The position numbers and the translations under genes were made by a program. A model generated the notes under the pieces. The model saw only the letters and a program-made list of their open reading frames with translations. It had not been told where the DNA came from and ran no database searches. This document shows, one piece after another, positions 122 to 37,604 of a stretch of 41,255 nt of DNA (position 1 is its first letter; every line of letters starts with the position of its first letter). The DNA is from Gemmatimonadota bacterium. GTDB lineage: Bacteria > Gemmatimonadota > Gemmatimonadetes > Gemmatimonadales > Gemmatimonadaceae. The stretch is taken from the NCBI GenBank assembly GCA_040389905.1, contig JAZJZK010000031.1:1-41255 (forward strand). The letters are read 5' to 3'.

Positions 122-436
122 TCACGCCGCTGGCAACGTTGGAATCGCGGCGATTTCCGCGCGCCTCTCCCGCCGAAGTTTCTGCAGGTCGTGGCGGGTC
201 TGGAGGGTGAGCCACAGCTCCGGCCCGTTCCCACACAGCTTGCCGAGGCGGAGCGCCATCAGAGGGGTGACGGGCTGGGCTTCGCTCAGGATAGCGTGCA
301 GCGTCTGCCGCGACACTCCCAACAAGCGAGCGATCTCGGAGAGCGGTCGGCCGAGTGCCGGCAGGATATCCTCTCGCAGCAATTCGCCGGGATGCATCGC
401 GGGCAGGCCCGGGGTGGGACTCTTCGTCGCACGCAC
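122..436 (-). CDS. higA: HigA-family addiction module antitoxin (HTH)
   Basis: HPGELLRE...IARLLGVSRQTL...VTPLMALRLGKLCGNGPELWLTLQ pattern; GTG start overlaps the toxin stop. Confidence 0.93.
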   Translation of the reverse strand: MRATKSPTPGLPAMHPGELLREDILPALGRPLSEIARLLGVSRQTLHAILSEAQPVTPLMALRLGKLCGNGPELWLTLQTRHDLQKLRRERRAEIAAIPTLPAA

Positions 437-708
437 TAGTGATAATCCTCCAGATCGACGTCAATGGCATCGCCGGCGTCCCACCCGAAGGTGATCCGCC
501 AGTTCCCTGAGACCCGAATCGACCACCGCCGTTCGCCACGCAGGCTGTGGAAGAAGTAGCCAGGCACGTTCACCTGCTGCGGCTCGGACGCGGCATCCAA
601 CACCAGAAGCATGCGGCGGACACGCGCGACATTCGGCACGCTCAGGCCGCGCTGATCCCCGGTCTCAAAGAACAGCTTGAGCGTCTTGGCGCGAAAGCTT
701 CGGATCAC
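436..708 (-). CDS. higB: HigB/RelE-family toxin, 90 aa
   Basis: (M)IRSFRAKTLKLFF...FHSLRG..RWSIRVSGNWRITFGW...VDLEDYH. Start reassigned to GTG at 708; the toxin gene precedes the antitoxin gene. Confidence 0.93.
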   Translation of the reverse strand: MIRSFRAKTLKLFFETGDQRGLSVPNVARVRRMLLVLDAASEPQQVNVPGYFFHSLRGERRWSIRVSGNWRITFGWDAGDAIDVDLEDYH

Positions 709-714
709 ACCCTC

Positions 715-757
715 AAGATGGTCGGCGCCCACGATGCCTGTCAAGTGGCGCTTGACA
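715..757 (-). promoter_or_regulatory. Putative higBA promoter with overlapping palindromic operator
   Basis: Minus strand has TTGACA (744-739), an 18-nt spacer and CATCTT (720-715). The palindrome TGTCAAG-tggcg-CTTGACA (739-757) covers the -35 box. Confidence 0.6.
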
Positions 758-913
758 CGCTGCGGGGACCATGTCGTCGTATCGCGCGTTCGAATAGACG
801 CCAACATGCGGGATCGCGTTCTCGGGCAGGCCACGTTGCGCATCCTTACGGCACTGAGGCCTCTTGGCCGCGCTCACATCGTGGCGCGAGATCCGCTTCG
901 TCGCGCCGTTGAC

Positions 914-976
914 GGCTAACGTTCGTTGGAGCAGACGAGCGGACTGAGGTAGCTCGCTGCGCTCGCATTGATTTGA
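914..976 (+). other. attC site, left portion, interrupted by group II intron
   Basis: GGCTAAC-GTTCG-TTGGAGCAG...GCTCGCTGCGCTCGC matches the left arm and centre of the intact attC at 5866; it stops at the intron 3' end (977). Confidence 0.85.
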
Positions 977-1621
977 GTCGCGATAGGGACACCGGTTGCC
1001 CGGTGCCCCCCGCACAGATCCGTACGAGCGGAATTCCCGCATACGGCTCCTACTTTGGATGTGTGGCGTCGAAGCGCACATAGGGATAGGGATGAAGGAT
1101 GCGTGGGCGGGGTATCCACAGTGCAGCGACCGGTGCAAATCGAGCCCAGGTGATGTGACGTTTCTGACTGCGACGCCGGAGCCGACGGAACCACATTCGA
1201 CAGACTTCCCGACTGAAGCAGCGCAGACTCTCCCAGTTCCCGGGCACCGCGTGATAGTTGTAAAACCCCTGAATCACGCGACGCAGCCACTGCCCGACCT
1301 CGGGCACCGGGTCATGCCACCTCCGTTGCAACTCCGTCTTTACGGCGGCGAGCTTCTTTCGGAGGCGCTTCATGCTCGAGCGACGATGCACCCAAAACCG
1401 ATCGGTGCTGCGCGTGCGGCCACAGACGTGGGTGAACCCTAAGAAATCGAACGTCTCCGGCTTGCCTTCCCCTCGTCGCTTCCGATCGCTGGCGGCATAG
1501 CGACCAAACGCCAGCAGGCGCGTCTTGTCGGGATGGAGTTCCAGCCCGAACTGTCCAAGCCGCTCCCGCCATGCCGCCAAACACTGCTCGGCCTCGTGTT
1601 GATGCTGGAACCCCATGACGA
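977..1621 (-). mobile_element. 3' half of a class-E-like group II intron (RT C-terminus, domains V and VI)
   Basis: Domain V GAGCCGTATGCGGGAATTCCGCTCGTACGGATC, then a domain VI hairpin ending CCCTATCGCGAC at 977. Confidence 0.88.
1050..1621 (-). pseudogene. ltrA: C-terminal half of group II intron RT/maturase (after YADD; RT6-7 and domain X), class-E-like
   Basis: VMGFQ...RERLGQFGLELHPDKTRLLAFGR...GKPETFDFLGFTH...GFYNYHAVPGN...LRRRSQK...PRILHPYP. The first 22 aa of the ORF-track call are the inner intron's domain V/VI sequence. Confidence 0.88.
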
Positions 1622-3505
1622 GTCGAGTAGCGGAGGGGAATCGCACCCCTCCGCCCTCACAGAACCGGACGTGAGACTCTCGCCTCATCCGGCTCCTACT
1701 CTCCAGCCTCCGGTTTCACCCCGAGCTGCCACAACACAAACAAGGTGGGGTCCCCGTCGCGCGACGCGCCCTAACCAGTGCATCGACGCACGCTCTCGAC
1801 GGCGAAATCGGGTGTACTTCCGTCGCACCCATGCAGCAAGGGCCTCATTGAAAACGCGTAACACTTGAACACACTTCGACCGATAGAACCGGCCATAGTA
1901 GTTCATCCAGCCTTGTACGACTGGATTGGTGACCCGCGCCAGGTCCTCCAAACGCTGATTGTTCCTGGTGGCCGCCATCCGCCAATCGCGAATGGTCGCG
2001 CGGATCTTCTTGGCCGCCTTGGAGCTGATCGCTGGAAGGAAGCTCACAAAGAACTTCCCCCATCGATTCTTCGCCCGCCGAGGTTGGAAGGTGTACCCGA
2101 GAAAGTCGAACGTGATGTGCTCGTGCCTCCCGGGCCGGTCGTCATCTTTGCAGTACACGATGCGGGTCTTCGTAGGATGAAGCTCCATACCGCACTGCTC
2201 AAACCGACCACGAATGGCGTCCAACACTGCCTTGGCCTGCTCCTCACTGCCACAGTGCACCACCGCATCGTCCGCATACCGCTCGAACCGAACGCTCGGA
2301 TGGTTCCTCTGCATCCAGACATCGAACGCATAGTGCAGAAAGAGATTGGCCAGCAACGGACTGATGACGCCACCTTGCGGCGTGCCCTTCCTCCGTTCCA
2401 CCAACGACCCGTCCGCCCGTTGCACTGGTGCACGTAGCCACCGCGCAACGTAGAGCCGAATCCATGGCGAGTCAGTATGTCGTGCCACGGCGCGCTCAAC
2501 CAGATCATGCGGGATGGAATCAAAGAACCCCTTGATGTCCAAATCGATCACCCAGTCAGTCGTCCAGCAGCGCTTTCTCGCGACCCCGACCGCGTCGATC
2601 GCCGACTTGCCGGGACGATAGCCATACGAGTCGTCATGGAACACCGGTTCCACTCTCGGCTCGAACACCATCTTCACGACCGTCTGTGCTACCCGATCCG
2701 CGACGGTAGGAATCCCGAGTGGGCGCGTACCGCCGTTGTCCTTCGGTATCTCGACCAGCCGCACGGGCGGTGGGACGTATGCGCCCGACGACATCCGATT
2801 CCAGATCTTGTACAGATTGCCCTTCAGATCTTTCTCAAACGTCCCCAGAGACACACGATCCACGCCCGCTGCACCGCGGTTCGCCTTGACCCGTTGATAC
2901 GCTTTCCAAACGAGTTGCTTCGGAATGTCATACGGCTTTGCCTCAGACACCGGCTCCTCCCATTGCTGGTTGACCTGTCCCTTCGGCCAGAGAGTCGGGC
3001 TCCTTCGCTCCGCCCGCATTACCGGGCCTCCTCGCTACTACGAGCCCGTCCGCCCCTTCGCCTCGCATTGGTACTCTACTCCTCATGGGTCCACCACTTG
3101 GAGGTCTCCCTTCGCATCGAGGCGAGAGGTTCCCACGTTCCGCACAAGAGCCTGCGCTGAGCTCGCGCCACCTTCATGCCGGTCATCACTCGGGCAGTCG
3201 ACAGGCTTCCCCCCGAGCTCCTTCACAGGCCAACAACTGGAGCCTGCTTTCGATGACGTCCGTACGCTTTCGACACATTATCAGTGGTTCACTCGCGTTC
3301 GCCTTCTCAGCGCGCACCTGACGGGTTGATCCCGCCTTTTCCGTCTCGCTCACCACCCCAGCCATTGTGCCAGAGCAGCATCCGGTGGTTTGGACCCTGG
3401 TCCTGCAACCCGAGTCCGAGGGGCCAGCCCTCATCTCCTGTGCAGCAAGGCTGCATTGATTCGGCTTCTACATGCTTGCCTCCTCTTTGCGCCGTCGTGG
3501 CGCAC
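1622..3505 (-). mobile_element. Complete class-D-like group II intron (1884 nt) inserted one base after the YADD codons of a host RT gene
   Basis: 5' end GTGCGCCACG at 3505; domain V GAGCCGGATGAGGCGAGAGTCTCACGTCCGGTTC; 3' end ...CTACTCGAC at 1622; candidate EBS1/EBS2 pair with the 5' exon. Confidence 0.92.
1685..2950 (-). CDS. ltrA: Group II intron reverse transcriptase/maturase, class-D-like, no endonuclease domain; probable +1 frameshift near the C-terminus
   Basis: KPYDIPKQLVWKAYQRVKANRGAAGVD, LYKIWNRMSSG, RPLGIPTVADR, GTPQGGVISPLLAN, FERYADD. GTG start at 2950 follows GGAGGAG. Confidence 0.93.
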   Translation of the reverse strand: MSEAKPYDIPKQLVWKAYQRVKANRGAAGVDRVSLGTFEKDLKGNLYKIWNRMSSGAYVPPPVRLVEIPKDNGGTRPLGIPTVADRVAQTVVKMVFEPRVEPVFHDDSYGYRPGKSAIDAVGVARKRCWTTDWVIDLDIKGFFDSIPHDLVERAVARHTDSPWIRLYVARWLRAPVQRADGSLVERRKGTPQGGVISPLLANLFLHYAFDVWMQRNHPSVRFERYADDAVVHCGSEEQAKAVLDAIRGRFEQCGMELHPTKTRIVYCKDDDRPGRHEHITFDFLGYTFQPRRAKNRWGKFFVSFLPAISSKAAKKIRATIRDWRMAATRNNQRLEDLARVTNPVVQGWMNYYGRFYRSKCVQVLRVFNEALAAWVRRKYTRFRRRERASMHWLGRVARRGPHLVCVVAARGETGGWRVGAG

Positions 3506-4346
3506 AGTCGTCAGCATAGCGAACGAACCGGTGCCCCCGGCGCTCCAATTCCCGGTCGAGATCGTCGAGCAGGATGTTGCTGAGGAGCGGCGACAGGGGA
3601 CCGCCTTGCGGCGTGCCCTCTGTTCGGGGCGACATCACCCCGCCGTCCATGACGCCCGCTTGCAGGTACCGGCGTATCAGACGGAGCACTCGTTTGTCTG
3701 CAATCCTCCGGGCCACGCGCGCCATCAGGATATCATGGTTCACGCGGTCGAAGAATTTCTCGAGGTCCATGTCCACCACCCACCGATGACCCGCCGCCAC
3801 ATACTGCTGCGCGCGCCGCACGGCATCGTGGGCGCTCCGTCCCGGACGAAAGCCGTAGCTCGCCTCCGAGAAGGTCGGATCGATCAGCGGTTGAAGAACT
3901 TGGAGCAGGGCTTGTTGAATGAATCGGTCCAGTACCGTCGGGATGCCCAAGGACCGAAGACCGCCACCGGGTTTCGGAATCTCTACCCGACGCACGGGCT
4001 GCGGAATGTACTCGCCCTTAAGCAGCGTCTCCCGCACGCGCGGCCAGTGCACCGCGAGGTAGCCTTTGAGCTGGCCGACCGTCATGCCATCGGTGCCCGG
4101 TGCTCCCTTGTTCTGCACGACGCGCGTGTACGCCTTCACCAAGTTCTCGCGACGCAGCACCTCCTCCATGAGCGGTAACGTTCCTCCGTTCGTCACCTCG
4201 TCTTGTGCCGTGGACGTTTGACGCGCGCCTTCCCCCGCGACGTCGGCGATTCCGTCGCCGACGTCGCGGGTGTGCTCCGGCATCTCAGCCTTCTCGTCTG
4301 CGTCTCGCTCGTCCATCGAACGCCTCGCGTGCGAACGACTCTCCAT
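3506..4346 (-). pseudogene. ltrA: N-terminal half of group II intron RT (RT0-RT5 through YADD), class-C-like
   Basis: LMEEVLRRENL..AY.RV..NKGAPG.DGM, LGIPTVLDRFIQQA, VVDMDLEKFFDRVNHD, GTPQGGPLSPLLSNILLDDLDRELERRGHRFVRYADD; interrupted at 3505. Start codon uncertain. Confidence 0.9.
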
Positions 4347-4734
4347 GTTCGGCCCTTCGCCACGGTGCGCGCGTGGCTACTTCGGCCTCGGCTGACTGCT
4401 GCACTCCGTCGCCGTGCCTTTCAACGCGGCTAGCCCGCTACTCCGTGCGAGCAGACGTGCAGCTCTCCCAGGGTAAGATCTCAGACTGTCGCTCCATCTA
4501 CCCGCCGCATCTACGCCCGCTTGGTCCGGATGACATTGGGCTTCAGGTCCATAGGCCCCCTCGCCCCCAAACGGTCGCCTCCTATACGGTTCGTGTTCCT
4601 CGGGCCGGAGCTTTGCCTACAGCTTCCTCCCCACACCGCCTCGCGACGATGCAGTTGCTGTTCAGCTAGAGGTTCCTGTCATCAAGGTCCTCAGAGGTCT
4701 TCCACCTCCTAGCATGAGATCATGCCTGGCGCAC
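3506..4734 (-). mobile_element. 5' half of a class-C-like (IIC) group II intron
   Basis: 5' end GTGCGCCAGGCATG at 4734, followed by a short domain I-III region. It lies just downstream of the 8-bp hairpin GAGCGCGC-nnn-GCGCGCTC. Candidate EBS1 CUAU (4554-4551) pairs with the exon end AUAG. Confidence 0.88.
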
Positions 4735-4802
4735 CTATTGATGGAGCGCGCTCCGCGCGCTCACTTATGTGATTGCCCCGCAGCTCAACTTGGGCGTACG
4801 GT
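4735..4802 (+). other. attC site, right portion, with degenerate core site GTACGGT
   Basis: Central hairpin followed by GCAGCTCAACTTGGGC-GTACGGT, matching the right arm GCAGCTCACCTTGGGC-GTTGGGC of the intact attC. Confidence 0.8.
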
Positions 4803-4814
4803 AGCCACGCATCG

Positions 4815-5042
4815 GTGAGTGACTTGAACGGCCTGTCCGACTCTGCAAACCCGAACCGTCCTGGCGGTCCTTTGGCGTGTCCTGAGTGTGCAGCGCCACT
4901 GGCCCAACTGAGCGCCTCGGAGTTTGACGAGGTTGGGCCTCGCTGCGACTTCGCATGCCCGAACGGGCATCGGATCGAAGTGCACTGCATCGAGGTCGAC
5001 GAGGAGGATGCCAATGCCGATTATCGCGACCCTGCCGAATAA
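4815..5042 (+). CDS. Small hypothetical zinc-ribbon-like cassette protein (about 75 aa)
   Basis: CPEC...CPNGH motifs. It begins right after an attC core, and its TAA overlaps the next attC-like GAATAAC. Confidence 0.55.
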   Translation: MSDLNGLSDSANPNRPGGPLACPECAAPLAQLSASEFDEVGPRCDFACPNGHRIEVHCIEVDEEDANADYRDPAE

Positions 5043-5183
5043 CGTTCCTCGGAGCAGACCCCGCGTGCCCGATCTGAGCGTGAGCGCCCACGCGCGCGTC
5101 ACCAGCCGCCGTCGCTTTCAGCATTTCTCGTCCCTGCTACAGACGCGGTGGCGCTTGAGGGTGTCTGGCAGCTCACCTGGCCA
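5037..5183 (+). other. Degenerate attC-like site
   Basis: GAATAAC-GTTCC-TCGGAGCAGAC resembles the family left arm and GCAGCTCACCTGG (5168-5180) resembles the right arm; no intact GTT core follows. Confidence 0.5.
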
Positions 5184-5383
5184 CCCGAACTGCGCATTGG
5201 CGTGCAACAACACGCCGTCGAACCCGACATCGTCGCCCAGCGCGCGCAACGCGCCGCGACGCGAGTCACGAACTCTGGGCCAGTTGCGCTTCAACTCATG
5301 TCGCCTGACGCAATCGCGCCGCGGACGGGGCCGGTCTATCTTCCCGCGTCAGACCATGCAGCATCCACTCATCGGACACTCGG

Positions 5384-5845
5384 ATGAATTCGTCAGCTCG
5401 GATACGATGCAGCGTTACGATTATCTGCCTTACAATTCCGTGCGGCGCGAGCGCGCAGGGCGACACTACCCGTGCCAGTTTCAAGGTGGGTAGCTGCCCA
5501 GCGCCTTCGGCCGACTCCGTGAAATGGGACTCCGTGGTGAGCGCCGTCGATCAACCCGCGCGCATTGTTCCCAGCACGGTCCCACGCTTTCCCATGCATC
5601 TGCGCACTGAGAACGCGTACAGCGGCAGAATCGTCTTGGCGATGGTGATCGATACGACCGGCGGCGTCGTCCAAGGCAGCGTCTCCGTGGAGGAGTCGAC
5701 CGATCCGCGACTCAGCACTTGGGGATGTCTGGTCGTGTATCAGATGCGGTTTACGCCGGCCACCGTCGCGGGAAAGCGGGTAGTCTCCCTGACTGAGCAG
5801 CCGCTCAGCTACAATGTGGGCGTAGGTCCGACCGCCAAACCGTGA
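5384..5845 (+). CDS. Exported protein with TonB C-terminal-like domain (cassette ORF)
   Basis: Signal-like N-terminus; PRFP..LR....SGRIVLAMVIDTTG.V..GSV.V..S.DP......MRFTPATVAGKRV....EQPLSY parallels the C-terminus of the TonB at 26625. Followed by attC. Confidence 0.72.
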   Translation: MNSSARIRCSVTIICLTIPCGASAQGDTTRASFKVGSCPAPSADSVKWDSVVSAVDQPARIVPSTVPRFPMHLRTENAYSGRIVLAMVIDTTGGVVQGSVSVEESTDPRLSTWGCLVVYQMRFTPATVAGKRVVSLTEQPLSYNVGVGPTAKP

Positions 5846-5865: not shown

Positions 5866-5959
5866 ACCTAACGTTCGTTGGAGCAGCCAAGGGCACACTT
5901 GGTCGCTCGCTGCGCTCGCCCTTTATTGATGCCCTTGCAGCTCACCTTGGGCGTTGGGC
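5866..5959 (+). other. Intact attC site (94 bp)
   Basis: R'' ACCTAAC, 5-nt spacer, arm GAGCAGCCAAGGGCA pairing imperfectly with TGCCCTTGCAGCTC (bulged base), R' GTTGGGC; about 20 nt after a stop codon. Confidence 0.9.
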
Positions 5960-37531: not shown

Positions 37532-37604
37532 TGGAGCGTACAGGGATCGAACCTGCGACCTCCTGGTTGCAAACCAGGCGCTCTCCCAGCTGAGCTAACG
37601 CCCC
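37532..37604 (-). tRNA. tRNA-Ala(TGC)
   Basis: GGGGCGT/ACGCTCC acceptor stem with G3:U70, AGCTCAGCTGGGAGAGC D arm, CCTGG-TTTGCAA-CCAGG anticodon arm, GGTTCGATCC T loop; CCA not encoded. Confidence 0.97.

Follow-up and report, generated by a model that had tools for sequence, protein, structure and literature searches.

Accounts of group II intron history start from the premise that each reverse transcriptase (RT) clade keeps to a single ribozyme structure and that classes seldom exchange parts. The locus described here raises the question of how a single intron can come to be of class C at its 5′ end and class E/F-like at its 3′ end. It is a 3.76-kb element (4734 to 977) on contig JAZJZK010000031.1 of a Gemmatimonadota bacterium (assembly GCA_040389905.1), a draft metagenome-assembled genome of 66 contigs and 84.6% completeness; the window, i.e. 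the whole stretch of DNA analysed, is this one entire contig of 41,255 nt. All features of the element lie on the minus strand. The element is a twintron, in which a complete inner group II intron interrupts a hybrid outer intron with a class C 5′ half and a class E/F-like 3′ half. From the comparisons set out below, the hybrid probably arose when two copies of the inner intron underwent homologous recombination, with loss of the DNA that lay between them.

A twintron with a hybrid outer intron

Removal of the inner intron (1622-3505) joins GAC GAC T to TC GTC ATG GGG TTC, which reads RYADD-F-VMGFQ across a T|TC codon, and the junction expected after its splicing is GACGACT|TCGTCATG. The open reading frame (ORF) so restored measures 841 + 572 nt, or 470 aa, and lies in an outer element of 1229 + 645 = 1874 nt, matching exactly what a sequence-only reading of this DNA had described; the two ORF halves moreover occupy consecutive parts of the TIGR04416 model (Table 1). 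The same reading had given the outer element a GTGCG start and an end in domains V and VI (DV and DVI). Both are present, the first as GTGCGCCAGGCATG at 4734 and the second at 1051-977 (38.6 bits, with a cut-off of 40), and the 5′ half in addition matches RF02001 (4650-4477, 130.4 bits) and RF01998 (4433-4352, 54.3 bits).

The inner element is likewise a complete group II intron, with a GTGCG end at 3505, a match to RF01999 (3432-3316, 98.3 bits), DV/DVI at 1697-1622 (RF00029, 62.3 bits) and an intact RT/maturase. Its RT scores about 160 bits against any solved RT, it harbours a GNRA loop, and folding gives its DV a loop of 4 nt; it is thus a third kind of intron, apart from both outer halves. 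With ORF, DV/DVI and 5′ end all intact, the inner intron appears to be active. It is predicted still to be able to splice, and the resulting RNA would combine class C domains 1 to 4 (D1-D4) with E/F-type DV/DVI and a hybrid RT.

Table 1. Features of the twintron and its surroundings, in window coordinates.
Feature	Position	Strand	Description
Outer intron 5′ half	4734-3506 (1229 nt)	-	Class C type; GTGCG end, D1-D4a, RT N-half
N-half of outer RT ORF	4346-3506 (280 aa + 1 base)	-	Ends RYADD; RVT_1 positions 1-155, TIGR04416 positions 2-215 (319 bits)
Inner group II intron	3505->1622 (1884 nt)	-	GTGCGCC 5′ end, RF01999, RF00029; intact; one base after the DD codons of YADD
Candidate exon-binding site 1 (EBS1) of inner intron	3238-3230	-	AGUUGUUGG in D1 hairpin loop; predicted pairing with 5′ exon CUGACGACU, 9/9 positions
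Inner RT/maturase ORF	3019-1685 (444 aa)	-	RVT_1 + GIIM, TIGR04416 422.5 bits; no endonuclease domain
Outer intron 3′ half	1621-977 (645 nt)	-	IIB-like, class E/F-like; RT C-half, DV, DVI
C-half of outer RT ORF	1621-1050 (2 bases + 189 aa + stop)	-	TIGR04416 positions 219-352 (65 bits), without GIIM match
Outer DV/DVI	1051-977	-	AGC triad, 5-nt loop GAAUU; RF00029 38.6 bits
5′ flank	4735-4800	-	Left part of attC-like site 1; hairpin GAGCGCGC-GGA-GCGCGCTC (4762-4744), then CATCAATAG abutting the intron
3′ flank	915-976	-	Central and right part of a different attC-like site 2; 95.7% over 69 nt to C26:77-145
Intact attC-like site	5866-5957	-	Both outer arms; folds as one long imperfect hairpin; same small array
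HigB-like/helix-turn-helix (HTH) cassette	122-843	-	Toxin 436-843 (PF05015, 47 bits); antitoxin 122-436, weak HTH matches

Ancestry of the two outer halves

The two halves of the outer RT were searched separately (N-half query 3507-4346 and C-half query 1053-1619, both on the minus strand). The N-half returned 119 listed proteins with 67-92% identity, of which 111 have at least 400 aa and the best ones about 460-485 aa, with RVT_1 and GIIM present in those of full length. Closest among those listed are P0002 (460 aa, 92%) and P0003 (84%), the source of which names a Gemmatimonadaceae assembly, and none of the 119 shows a BLASTP match to the C-half of the window. When compared with solved RTs, the N-half scores 332 bits to the GsI-IIC RT and 248-256 bits to three other IIC maturases, versus 132 bits to LtrA and 101 bits to the Thermosynechococcus elongatus RT, whilst P0002 aligns over its full length to the GsI-IIC RT with 480 bits. 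At the RNA level, RF02001 is common to the 5′ half in the window and to all seven scanned genome relatives of the N-half; a clear 5′ end is seen in five of them, each after a hairpin-like repeat, and the window in the same way presents a hairpin (4762-4744) and 9 nt before an RF02001-type D1. A CGC triad in DV is a hallmark of class C. Four of the class C relatives (L086, L088, L089 and L090) have a DV starting CCGCC, which holds this triad, with a loop of 4 nt in L086. A class C (IIC) identity for the 5′ half, comprising ribozyme D1-D4 and the RT N-half, is supported by these comparisons, in agreement with the class first suggested for the N-half. The outer element taken as a whole does not behave as class C, since its C-half falls in another clade and its DV starts GAGCC (AGC).

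For the C-half, 120 listed proteins display 60-91% identity; they are mostly about 500-550 aa long, without a recorded GIIM match, and the closest among those listed is P0121 (512 aa, 91%). The N parts of all 120 have 32-45% identity to the N-half of the window. No solved structure matches the C-half at E ≤ 0.01, though the GsI-IIC RT includes the region. P0121 itself scores about 136-143 bits to class C RTs and 135 and 122 bits to two other intron RTs, and with similarly low scores throughout it is therefore not close to any solved RT. Upstream of their C parts, nine of 11 scanned relatives harbour RF02005 in their own 5′ halves (L102 and L104 give no match at the gathering score), and this cognate 5′ half of the E/F-like lineage is absent from the window. 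What the window does share with these relatives is the 3′ end of the ribozyme: its DVI terminates in ..GUCCCUAUCGCGAC, in agreement with their ends (..GUCCCUACCGCGAY), and folding gives a DV loop of 5 nt in the window's outer intron (GAAUU) as well as in L112 (GAAUA) and L098 (UAAUC), both of which also have its AGC triad. According to the part of Nagy 2013 that deals with this loop, 5 nt in place of a tetraloop is a feature of classes E and F. The 5-nt loop thus narrows the class E of the sequence-only reading to E or F: the separation of the 3′ half from class C held, and these features do not tell E from F. On this basis the 3′ half (RT C-half, DV and DVI) is assigned to an IIB-like lineage of class E or F. 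Its kind occurs at 80 genome loci, mostly in Acidobacteriota, Gemmatimonadaceae and Syntrophomonadales assemblies, with no named reference intron among them; the Syntrophomonadaceae titles in this set are at most a hint at its class.

Trees were built separately for the parts before and after YADD, each with 42 rows: 19 proteins of an A set (20 were picked, and P0024 was dropped by the length filter), 21 of a B set, the inner RT and the respective half from the window. In the first, the N-half is sister to P0002 (Shimodaira-Hasegawa-like approximate likelihood ratio test, SH-aLRT, 100) within the A clade (99); in the second, the C-half is placed with P0121-P0123 (98) as part of the B clade (99). 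Full-length proteins each fall in the same group in both trees. The two RT halves of the outer intron are therefore in different clades (SH-aLRT 98-100), as had been anticipated, and an ordinary twintron with both halves in one clade is not supported. Taken together, the sequence comparisons demonstrate that the protein and RNA halves of the outer intron differ in ancestry.

An intron family that homes to YADD codons

A metagenome scan with the inner RT recovered 80 loci with 52-80% identity. Of 40 intron 5′ ends found by pattern, 16 directly follow GAYGAYN, namely the one in the window and those at L010, L011, L012, L018, L026, L028, L029, L032, L033, L037, L039, L042, L044, L050 and L051; YADD codons also precede four further family members, the 5′ ends of which are variant or offset. 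Three loci (L007:1766, L008:394 and L013:2729) begin GGCGCGCC rather than GTGCGCC, directly after GACGACT, which reflects an uncommon 5′ end or else a boundary that is off by a few bases. The D1 loop AGUYGUU, in which the candidate EBS1 of the window is found, is kept in 14 of 16 aligned YADD-site members, with a base replaced by U in one and by A in another. Pairing of this loop with GAYGAY(U) would be possible, with G facing the synonymous wobble base, and the design looks suited to tolerating GAC/GAT variation. Judged by its insertion sites, the family is one that homes one base after the YADD Asp codons in RT genes of at least two intron classes. Seen against these sites, both inner junctions of the window prove to be genuine homing junctions of the family.

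To class the hosts, 18 loci with RT-like flanks were picked and each flank was compared with two protein sets, and 11 loci were matched on both sides. Six of the 11 are cognate E/F-type on both sides (L007, L012, L032, L044, L029 and L050), one is class C-type on both sides (L026), and two are unclear (L013 and L033). The other two are discordant. In L008:1-2842 the 5′ flank is E/F-type (79%, 132 aa) and the 3′ flank class C-type (51%, 187 aa), the reverse of the polarity in the window, whilst in L035:1-2200 it is the 5′ flank that is class C-type (39 aa, RGHRFVRYADD) and the 3′ flank that is E/F-type (42%, 176 aa). With the window included, discordant twintrons thus make up 3/12 of those with two classifiable flanks, and both polarities are represented; L008 and L035 are short metagenome contigs and may be assembly artefacts.

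Several such twintrons are also present in one other genome. G401, the Acidobacteriaceae assembly behind L128, contains an E/F-type host twintron at C31:19006-22380 and more on C30 and C18, and its contig C28 has uninterrupted host copies beside the twintrons on other contigs. The raw material for recombination is thus present together in a single genome. Several cluster representatives with the C-half kind moreover begin with read-through of the 3′ end of an inner intron. With the family also found in both host kinds, substrate for such recombination is therefore common.

The element lies between halves of two attC-like sites

The DNA on either side of the element is made up of repeats of one family, the attC-like sites, which have conserved outer arms and fold into long imperfect hairpins. 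The outer arm of the 5′ flank has 1 mismatch to the genome repeat, and an uninterrupted site with the central hairpin of this flank is found in the same genome at C12:190246-190330. The 3′ flank begins with a central part that is found intact on C26 and C42. Six intact copies each have complementary inner arms (GAGCGGA/TCCGCTC or CAAGGGC/GCCCTTG); at the split site, GGGGCAA of the 5′ flank stands against TCCGCTC of the 3′ flank, and the two do not pair. The rejoined flanks measure 128 nt versus 85-92 nt in intact sites. Folding energy was rejected as a discriminator of a split site, in that the conserved outer arms of the rejoined hybrid still pair (-23.2 kcal/mol over 128 nt), and arm sequence and length were used in its place. 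By these, the two flanks demonstrably do not form one attC site. With its ends in two different sites, the hybrid outer element did not insert as a unit.

Across the genome, 15 left-arm matches were found, and for seven there is a right arm no more than 140 nt away. The attC-like palindromes lie near 915-976, 4735-4800, about 5041-5185 and 5866-5957 in the window and on contigs C26, C42, C53, C59 and C12 of the assembly, as repeated imperfect palindromes with conserved outer arms beside short cassettes. They are mostly close to contig ends, with cassette-sized ORFs between them. Both introns are opposite in strand to the cassette ORFs 4773-5042 and 5384-5845, and class C introns in integrons have been reported on the strand opposite to the cassette genes in the portion of Leon 2010 (PMC3001079) concerned with their orientation.

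An ordinary integron was considered for the array and rejected, since no integron integrase matches above the TIGR02249 cut-off. A 164-aa ORF on C59 (L110:1483-1977, minus strand), near attC-like sites, covers only positions 4-138 of the integrase model (87.8 bits), and the C59 region may be a decayed integron platform. The same ORF also adjoins an addiction-module ORF.

Two further features of the window can be recorded here. In the HigB-like/HTH cassette, which adjoins the twintron, the toxin ORF overlaps the antitoxin ORF by one base, and the pair is opposite in strand to the other small cassette ORFs. A tRNA gene at 37532-37604 (minus strand; RF00005, 67.9 bits) has no relation to the element.

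Support from an independent assembly

Run X1, a watershed metagenome, contains every sampled word of the window and may be the source of the genome. As an independent check, the contigs that Logan had assembled separately from X1 were used, which come from the same sample and are contigs rather than raw or long reads. One X1 contig of 3845 nt matches 920-4764 throughout (0 differences, 0 gaps), with a mean depth of 12.9, and the adjoining X1 contigs have depths of 13.8 (600-944) and 13.4 (4735-5100). Over 1300-3800, at ≥ 95% likeness, it is the single X1 contig present, with 0 loose ends and 0 joints. The inner intron makes up half of the 3845-nt contig, such that a twofold inner depth would lift the contig mean. 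A collapsed two-copy repeat would branch at the ends of the inner intron and raise the mean depth; neither is seen, and repeat collapse is therefore an unlikely origin of the element. The sequence-only reading had put forward a molecule spanning both flanks as a decisive point, and this contig supplies one at the level of assembly.

Every part of the element, i.e. both halves and the inner intron, is single-copy in the genome assembly. Stand-in searches of that assembly (blastn and tblastn) for the missing class C 3′ half and E/F-type 5′ half came back empty, and a search for the parents or the reciprocal product yielded nothing beyond the locus itself and, on C12, a 92-aa RT fragment that is unrelated. 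The reciprocal E5′/C3′ chimera, which the earlier reading had proposed to look for, was accordingly not found in this genome. Beyond X1, the sister runs of the source study gave two short cross-matches only (X18) or no match (X19), and in runs X2, X4 and X7, which form no part of the evidence, parts of the element are matched by diverged relatives only.

Origin of the hybrid

The proposal that best accommodates these data begins with two copies of the inner intron, which would have occupied the same post-YADD site in a class C and in an E/F-like host intron. Each host intron would have stood in its own attC-like site, both presumably in the same orientation within one cassette array. Recombination between the 1.9-kb inner copies would then have deleted the DNA between them and left one inner intron that joins a class C 5′ half to an E/F-type 3′ half, with half of a different site at each end. 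As both inner junctions are normal homing junctions, the point of exchange would have to lie inside the inner intron. Similarity switches exactly at the insertion site, as in intron-mediated shuffling, and stand-ins for the parents are at hand in P0002 (92%) and P0121 (91%). Recombination with deletion between two YADD-homing copies had been proposed from the sequence alone; the mismatched attC-like flanks and the presence of one family in both kinds of host bear out the setting that this requires, and the event itself we infer.

Several points weigh against this account. Neither parent twintron was found in the 84.6% complete genome or in the probable source run X1. The outer DV/DVI, at 38.6 bits and an E-value of 3.1e-5, lies below the Rfam gathering score of 40. 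Sliding identity to eight inner relatives, from class C, E/F and mixed hosts, is flat at 67-88%, and with relatives this distant no crossover point can be mapped. The read evidence consists of X1 contigs of the probable source sample, with depth as one mean per contig. The assembly graph forks in both attC-like flanks, so that the genomic position of the element, i.e. its placement on the contig, is less secure than its internal structure. In other genomes, the relatives of the 3′-half lineage have no obviously attC-like 3′ flanks, so that placing the second parent in an attC site draws on this locus only.

A different route to the same product would be a by-product of retrohoming, in which the inner intron, as RNA from a class C host, would have entered the YADD site of an E/F-like intron by reverse splicing, with the 5′ part of the donor becoming joined to the 3′ part of the recipient. 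This could have come about through an incomplete event repaired against the donor, or through the RT copying unspliced donor RNA. The inner intron looks active, with ORF, DV/DVI and 5′ end intact, and it encodes an endonuclease-less RT; introns with such RTs rely on replication forks and host repair, as stated in the relevant part of Zimmerly and Semper 2015 (PMC4424553). Furthermore, the polarity in the window, a donor 5′ exon with a recipient 3′ exon, is as the model predicts. Set against this, nothing in the sequence distinguishes the route from ordinary recombination, and the polarity of L008 is the opposite. Bacterial retrohoming is also said to proceed by complete reverse splicing without co-conversion of the exons, which counts against it. 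We regard this route as improbable.

Less probable again is a hybrid that came first, either through a crossover at the coding stretch for VRYADD or as an older hybrid lineage, into which the inner intron homed later. The VRYADD coding stretch is common to both parents, a crossover there would also be in frame, and the inner family enters such sites readily, given that 16 of its 40 5′ ends follow GAYGAYN. Against it stands that an uninterrupted class C/E-F hybrid lineage was found in none of the 119 N-half relatives, 80 genome loci and 64 cluster representatives. At the 80 loci with the C-half kind, no class C N part stands beside it: 73 have the cognate part, three are without upstream DNA and four have none adjoining, one of these four being preceded by an inner intron. 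The 64 representatives are those with ≥ 41 aa upstream among the best 150 clusters with the C-half kind; no class C-type upstream part occurs in them (46 cognate, 18 unclear). In addition, the codon T|TC appears to be of mixed descent, as its T fits the class C relatives (Cys, TGY) and its TC fits L112 and L113 (Ile, ATY). The switch in similarity lies exactly at the insertion point, one base past the shared stretch, which is a weak argument as this base varies among hosts, and 18 nt of homology is a poor substrate for recombination when compared with 1.9 kb.

An assembly or binning artefact, in which the assembler joined the wrong flanks of two ordinary twintrons via a near-identical inner intron, would suit a 66-contig metagenome draft in which the element lies 976 bases from the contig end, both flanks are repeats where contigs break and the discordant L008 and L035, as short metagenome contigs, possibly record the same kind of error, but it is very unlikely, given that the unbranched 3845-nt contig of a second assembler crosses both inner junctions with 0 differences, that its depth of 12.9 equals that of the flanks (13.8 and 13.4) with no rival contig or loose end on 1300-3800, and that neither a class C 3′ half nor an E/F-type 5′ half is present in the assembly.

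Recombination between two inner copies accordingly remains the probable origin, and the fate of its product can be considered. An element with class C D1-D4 and a foreign DV/DVI, and with class C fingers and palm and a foreign thumb, is unlikely to be mobile, and the lack of an uninterrupted hybrid lineage in the searches above makes a dead end probable. The hybrid outer intron, as predicted from its composition, is probably not a working mobile element.

Significance

The locus offers a concrete natural product of exchange between intron classes, with an in-frame break at a defined point and with both parents named via close relatives. The agent indicated is a family of introns that, across classes, parasitise the codons of the catalytic motif in the RT genes of other introns. 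Whether a disagreement of RNA with RT trees reflects 'reassortment' or convergence is left open in the part of Zimmerly and Semper 2015 (PMC4424553) that addresses it, and with a hybrid and its parents the question of ribozyme-RT exchange becomes testable. For integron biology, the locus is a case of nested mobile introns that probably deleted part of a cassette array. The significance is limited by its nature as a single locus in a draft genome and, probably, a dead end. A bolder idea is that YADD-homing introns serve as portable homology through which group II intron classes exchange ribozyme and RT modules time and again, with some hybrids perhaps able to splice and move; we consider this quite unlikely. 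If true, repeated swapping of this kind would seed new intron varieties and break the rule of ribozyme-RT coevolution.

Comparison with known systems

Many of the components involved are already in print, namely twintrons, the homing of introns into introns, class C introns in attC sites, fragments of class E introns inside attC clusters and the shuffling of host genes by introns. In the open-access papers searched, no description was found of an outer group II intron of two classes built via a nested intron, or of an intron family homing at YADD codons across classes.

With regard to nesting, the plastid twintrons of Porphyridium, as presented in part of Perrineau 2015 (PMC4476101), similarly have one inner intron in two different outer introns. 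They differ in their plastid location and in that the outer introns retain their own two halves, with no hybrid described in that part of the paper. In T. elongatus, the inner intron likewise occupies one conserved site of the ORF region in diverged outer introns, and the nesting is viewed as a route of proliferation (Mohr 2010, PMC2882425, in the passages on these twintrons). The nested introns of Methanosarcina acetivorans (Dai and Zimmerly 2003, as presented in the corresponding section of PMC4424553) resemble the window in that copies were removed by homologous recombination and in their location outside housekeeping genes. These, however, are archaeal arrays of related introns, and that section mentions no outer intron of two classes, whereas the inner intron of the window targets the base that follows the YADD codons, in hosts of two classes.

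The surroundings of the element also have parallels. Introns of the IIC-attC type are class C introns that occupy the bottom strand of an attC-like site, which sets them against the direction of the cassette genes (PMC3001079, in the part cited above), as is seen here for the 5′ half. Truncated class E introns have been reported in an integrase-less attC cluster (Sonbol and Siam 2021, PMC7923331, in its account of that cluster), and toxin-antitoxin cassettes occur nearby, as they do in the window. The introns that the relevant parts of these two papers describe are separate, whole or truncated, and no fusion of class C with class E/F via a nested intron appears there.

A counterpart to the shuffling itself is found among relaxases. 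In the sections of LaRoche-Johnston 2020 (PMC7947834) that treat them, natural relaxase chimeras have their switch in similarity exactly at the insertion site of a shared intron, which is attributed to recombination of the DNA. As in the window, one intron occupies the same conserved catalytic-motif site in diverged homologous genes. In that system the exons belong to relaxase genes of the host, and function of the chimeras was demonstrated, whereas in the window, where function is doubtful, the exons that appear to have been shuffled are the ribozyme and RT halves of other group II introns.

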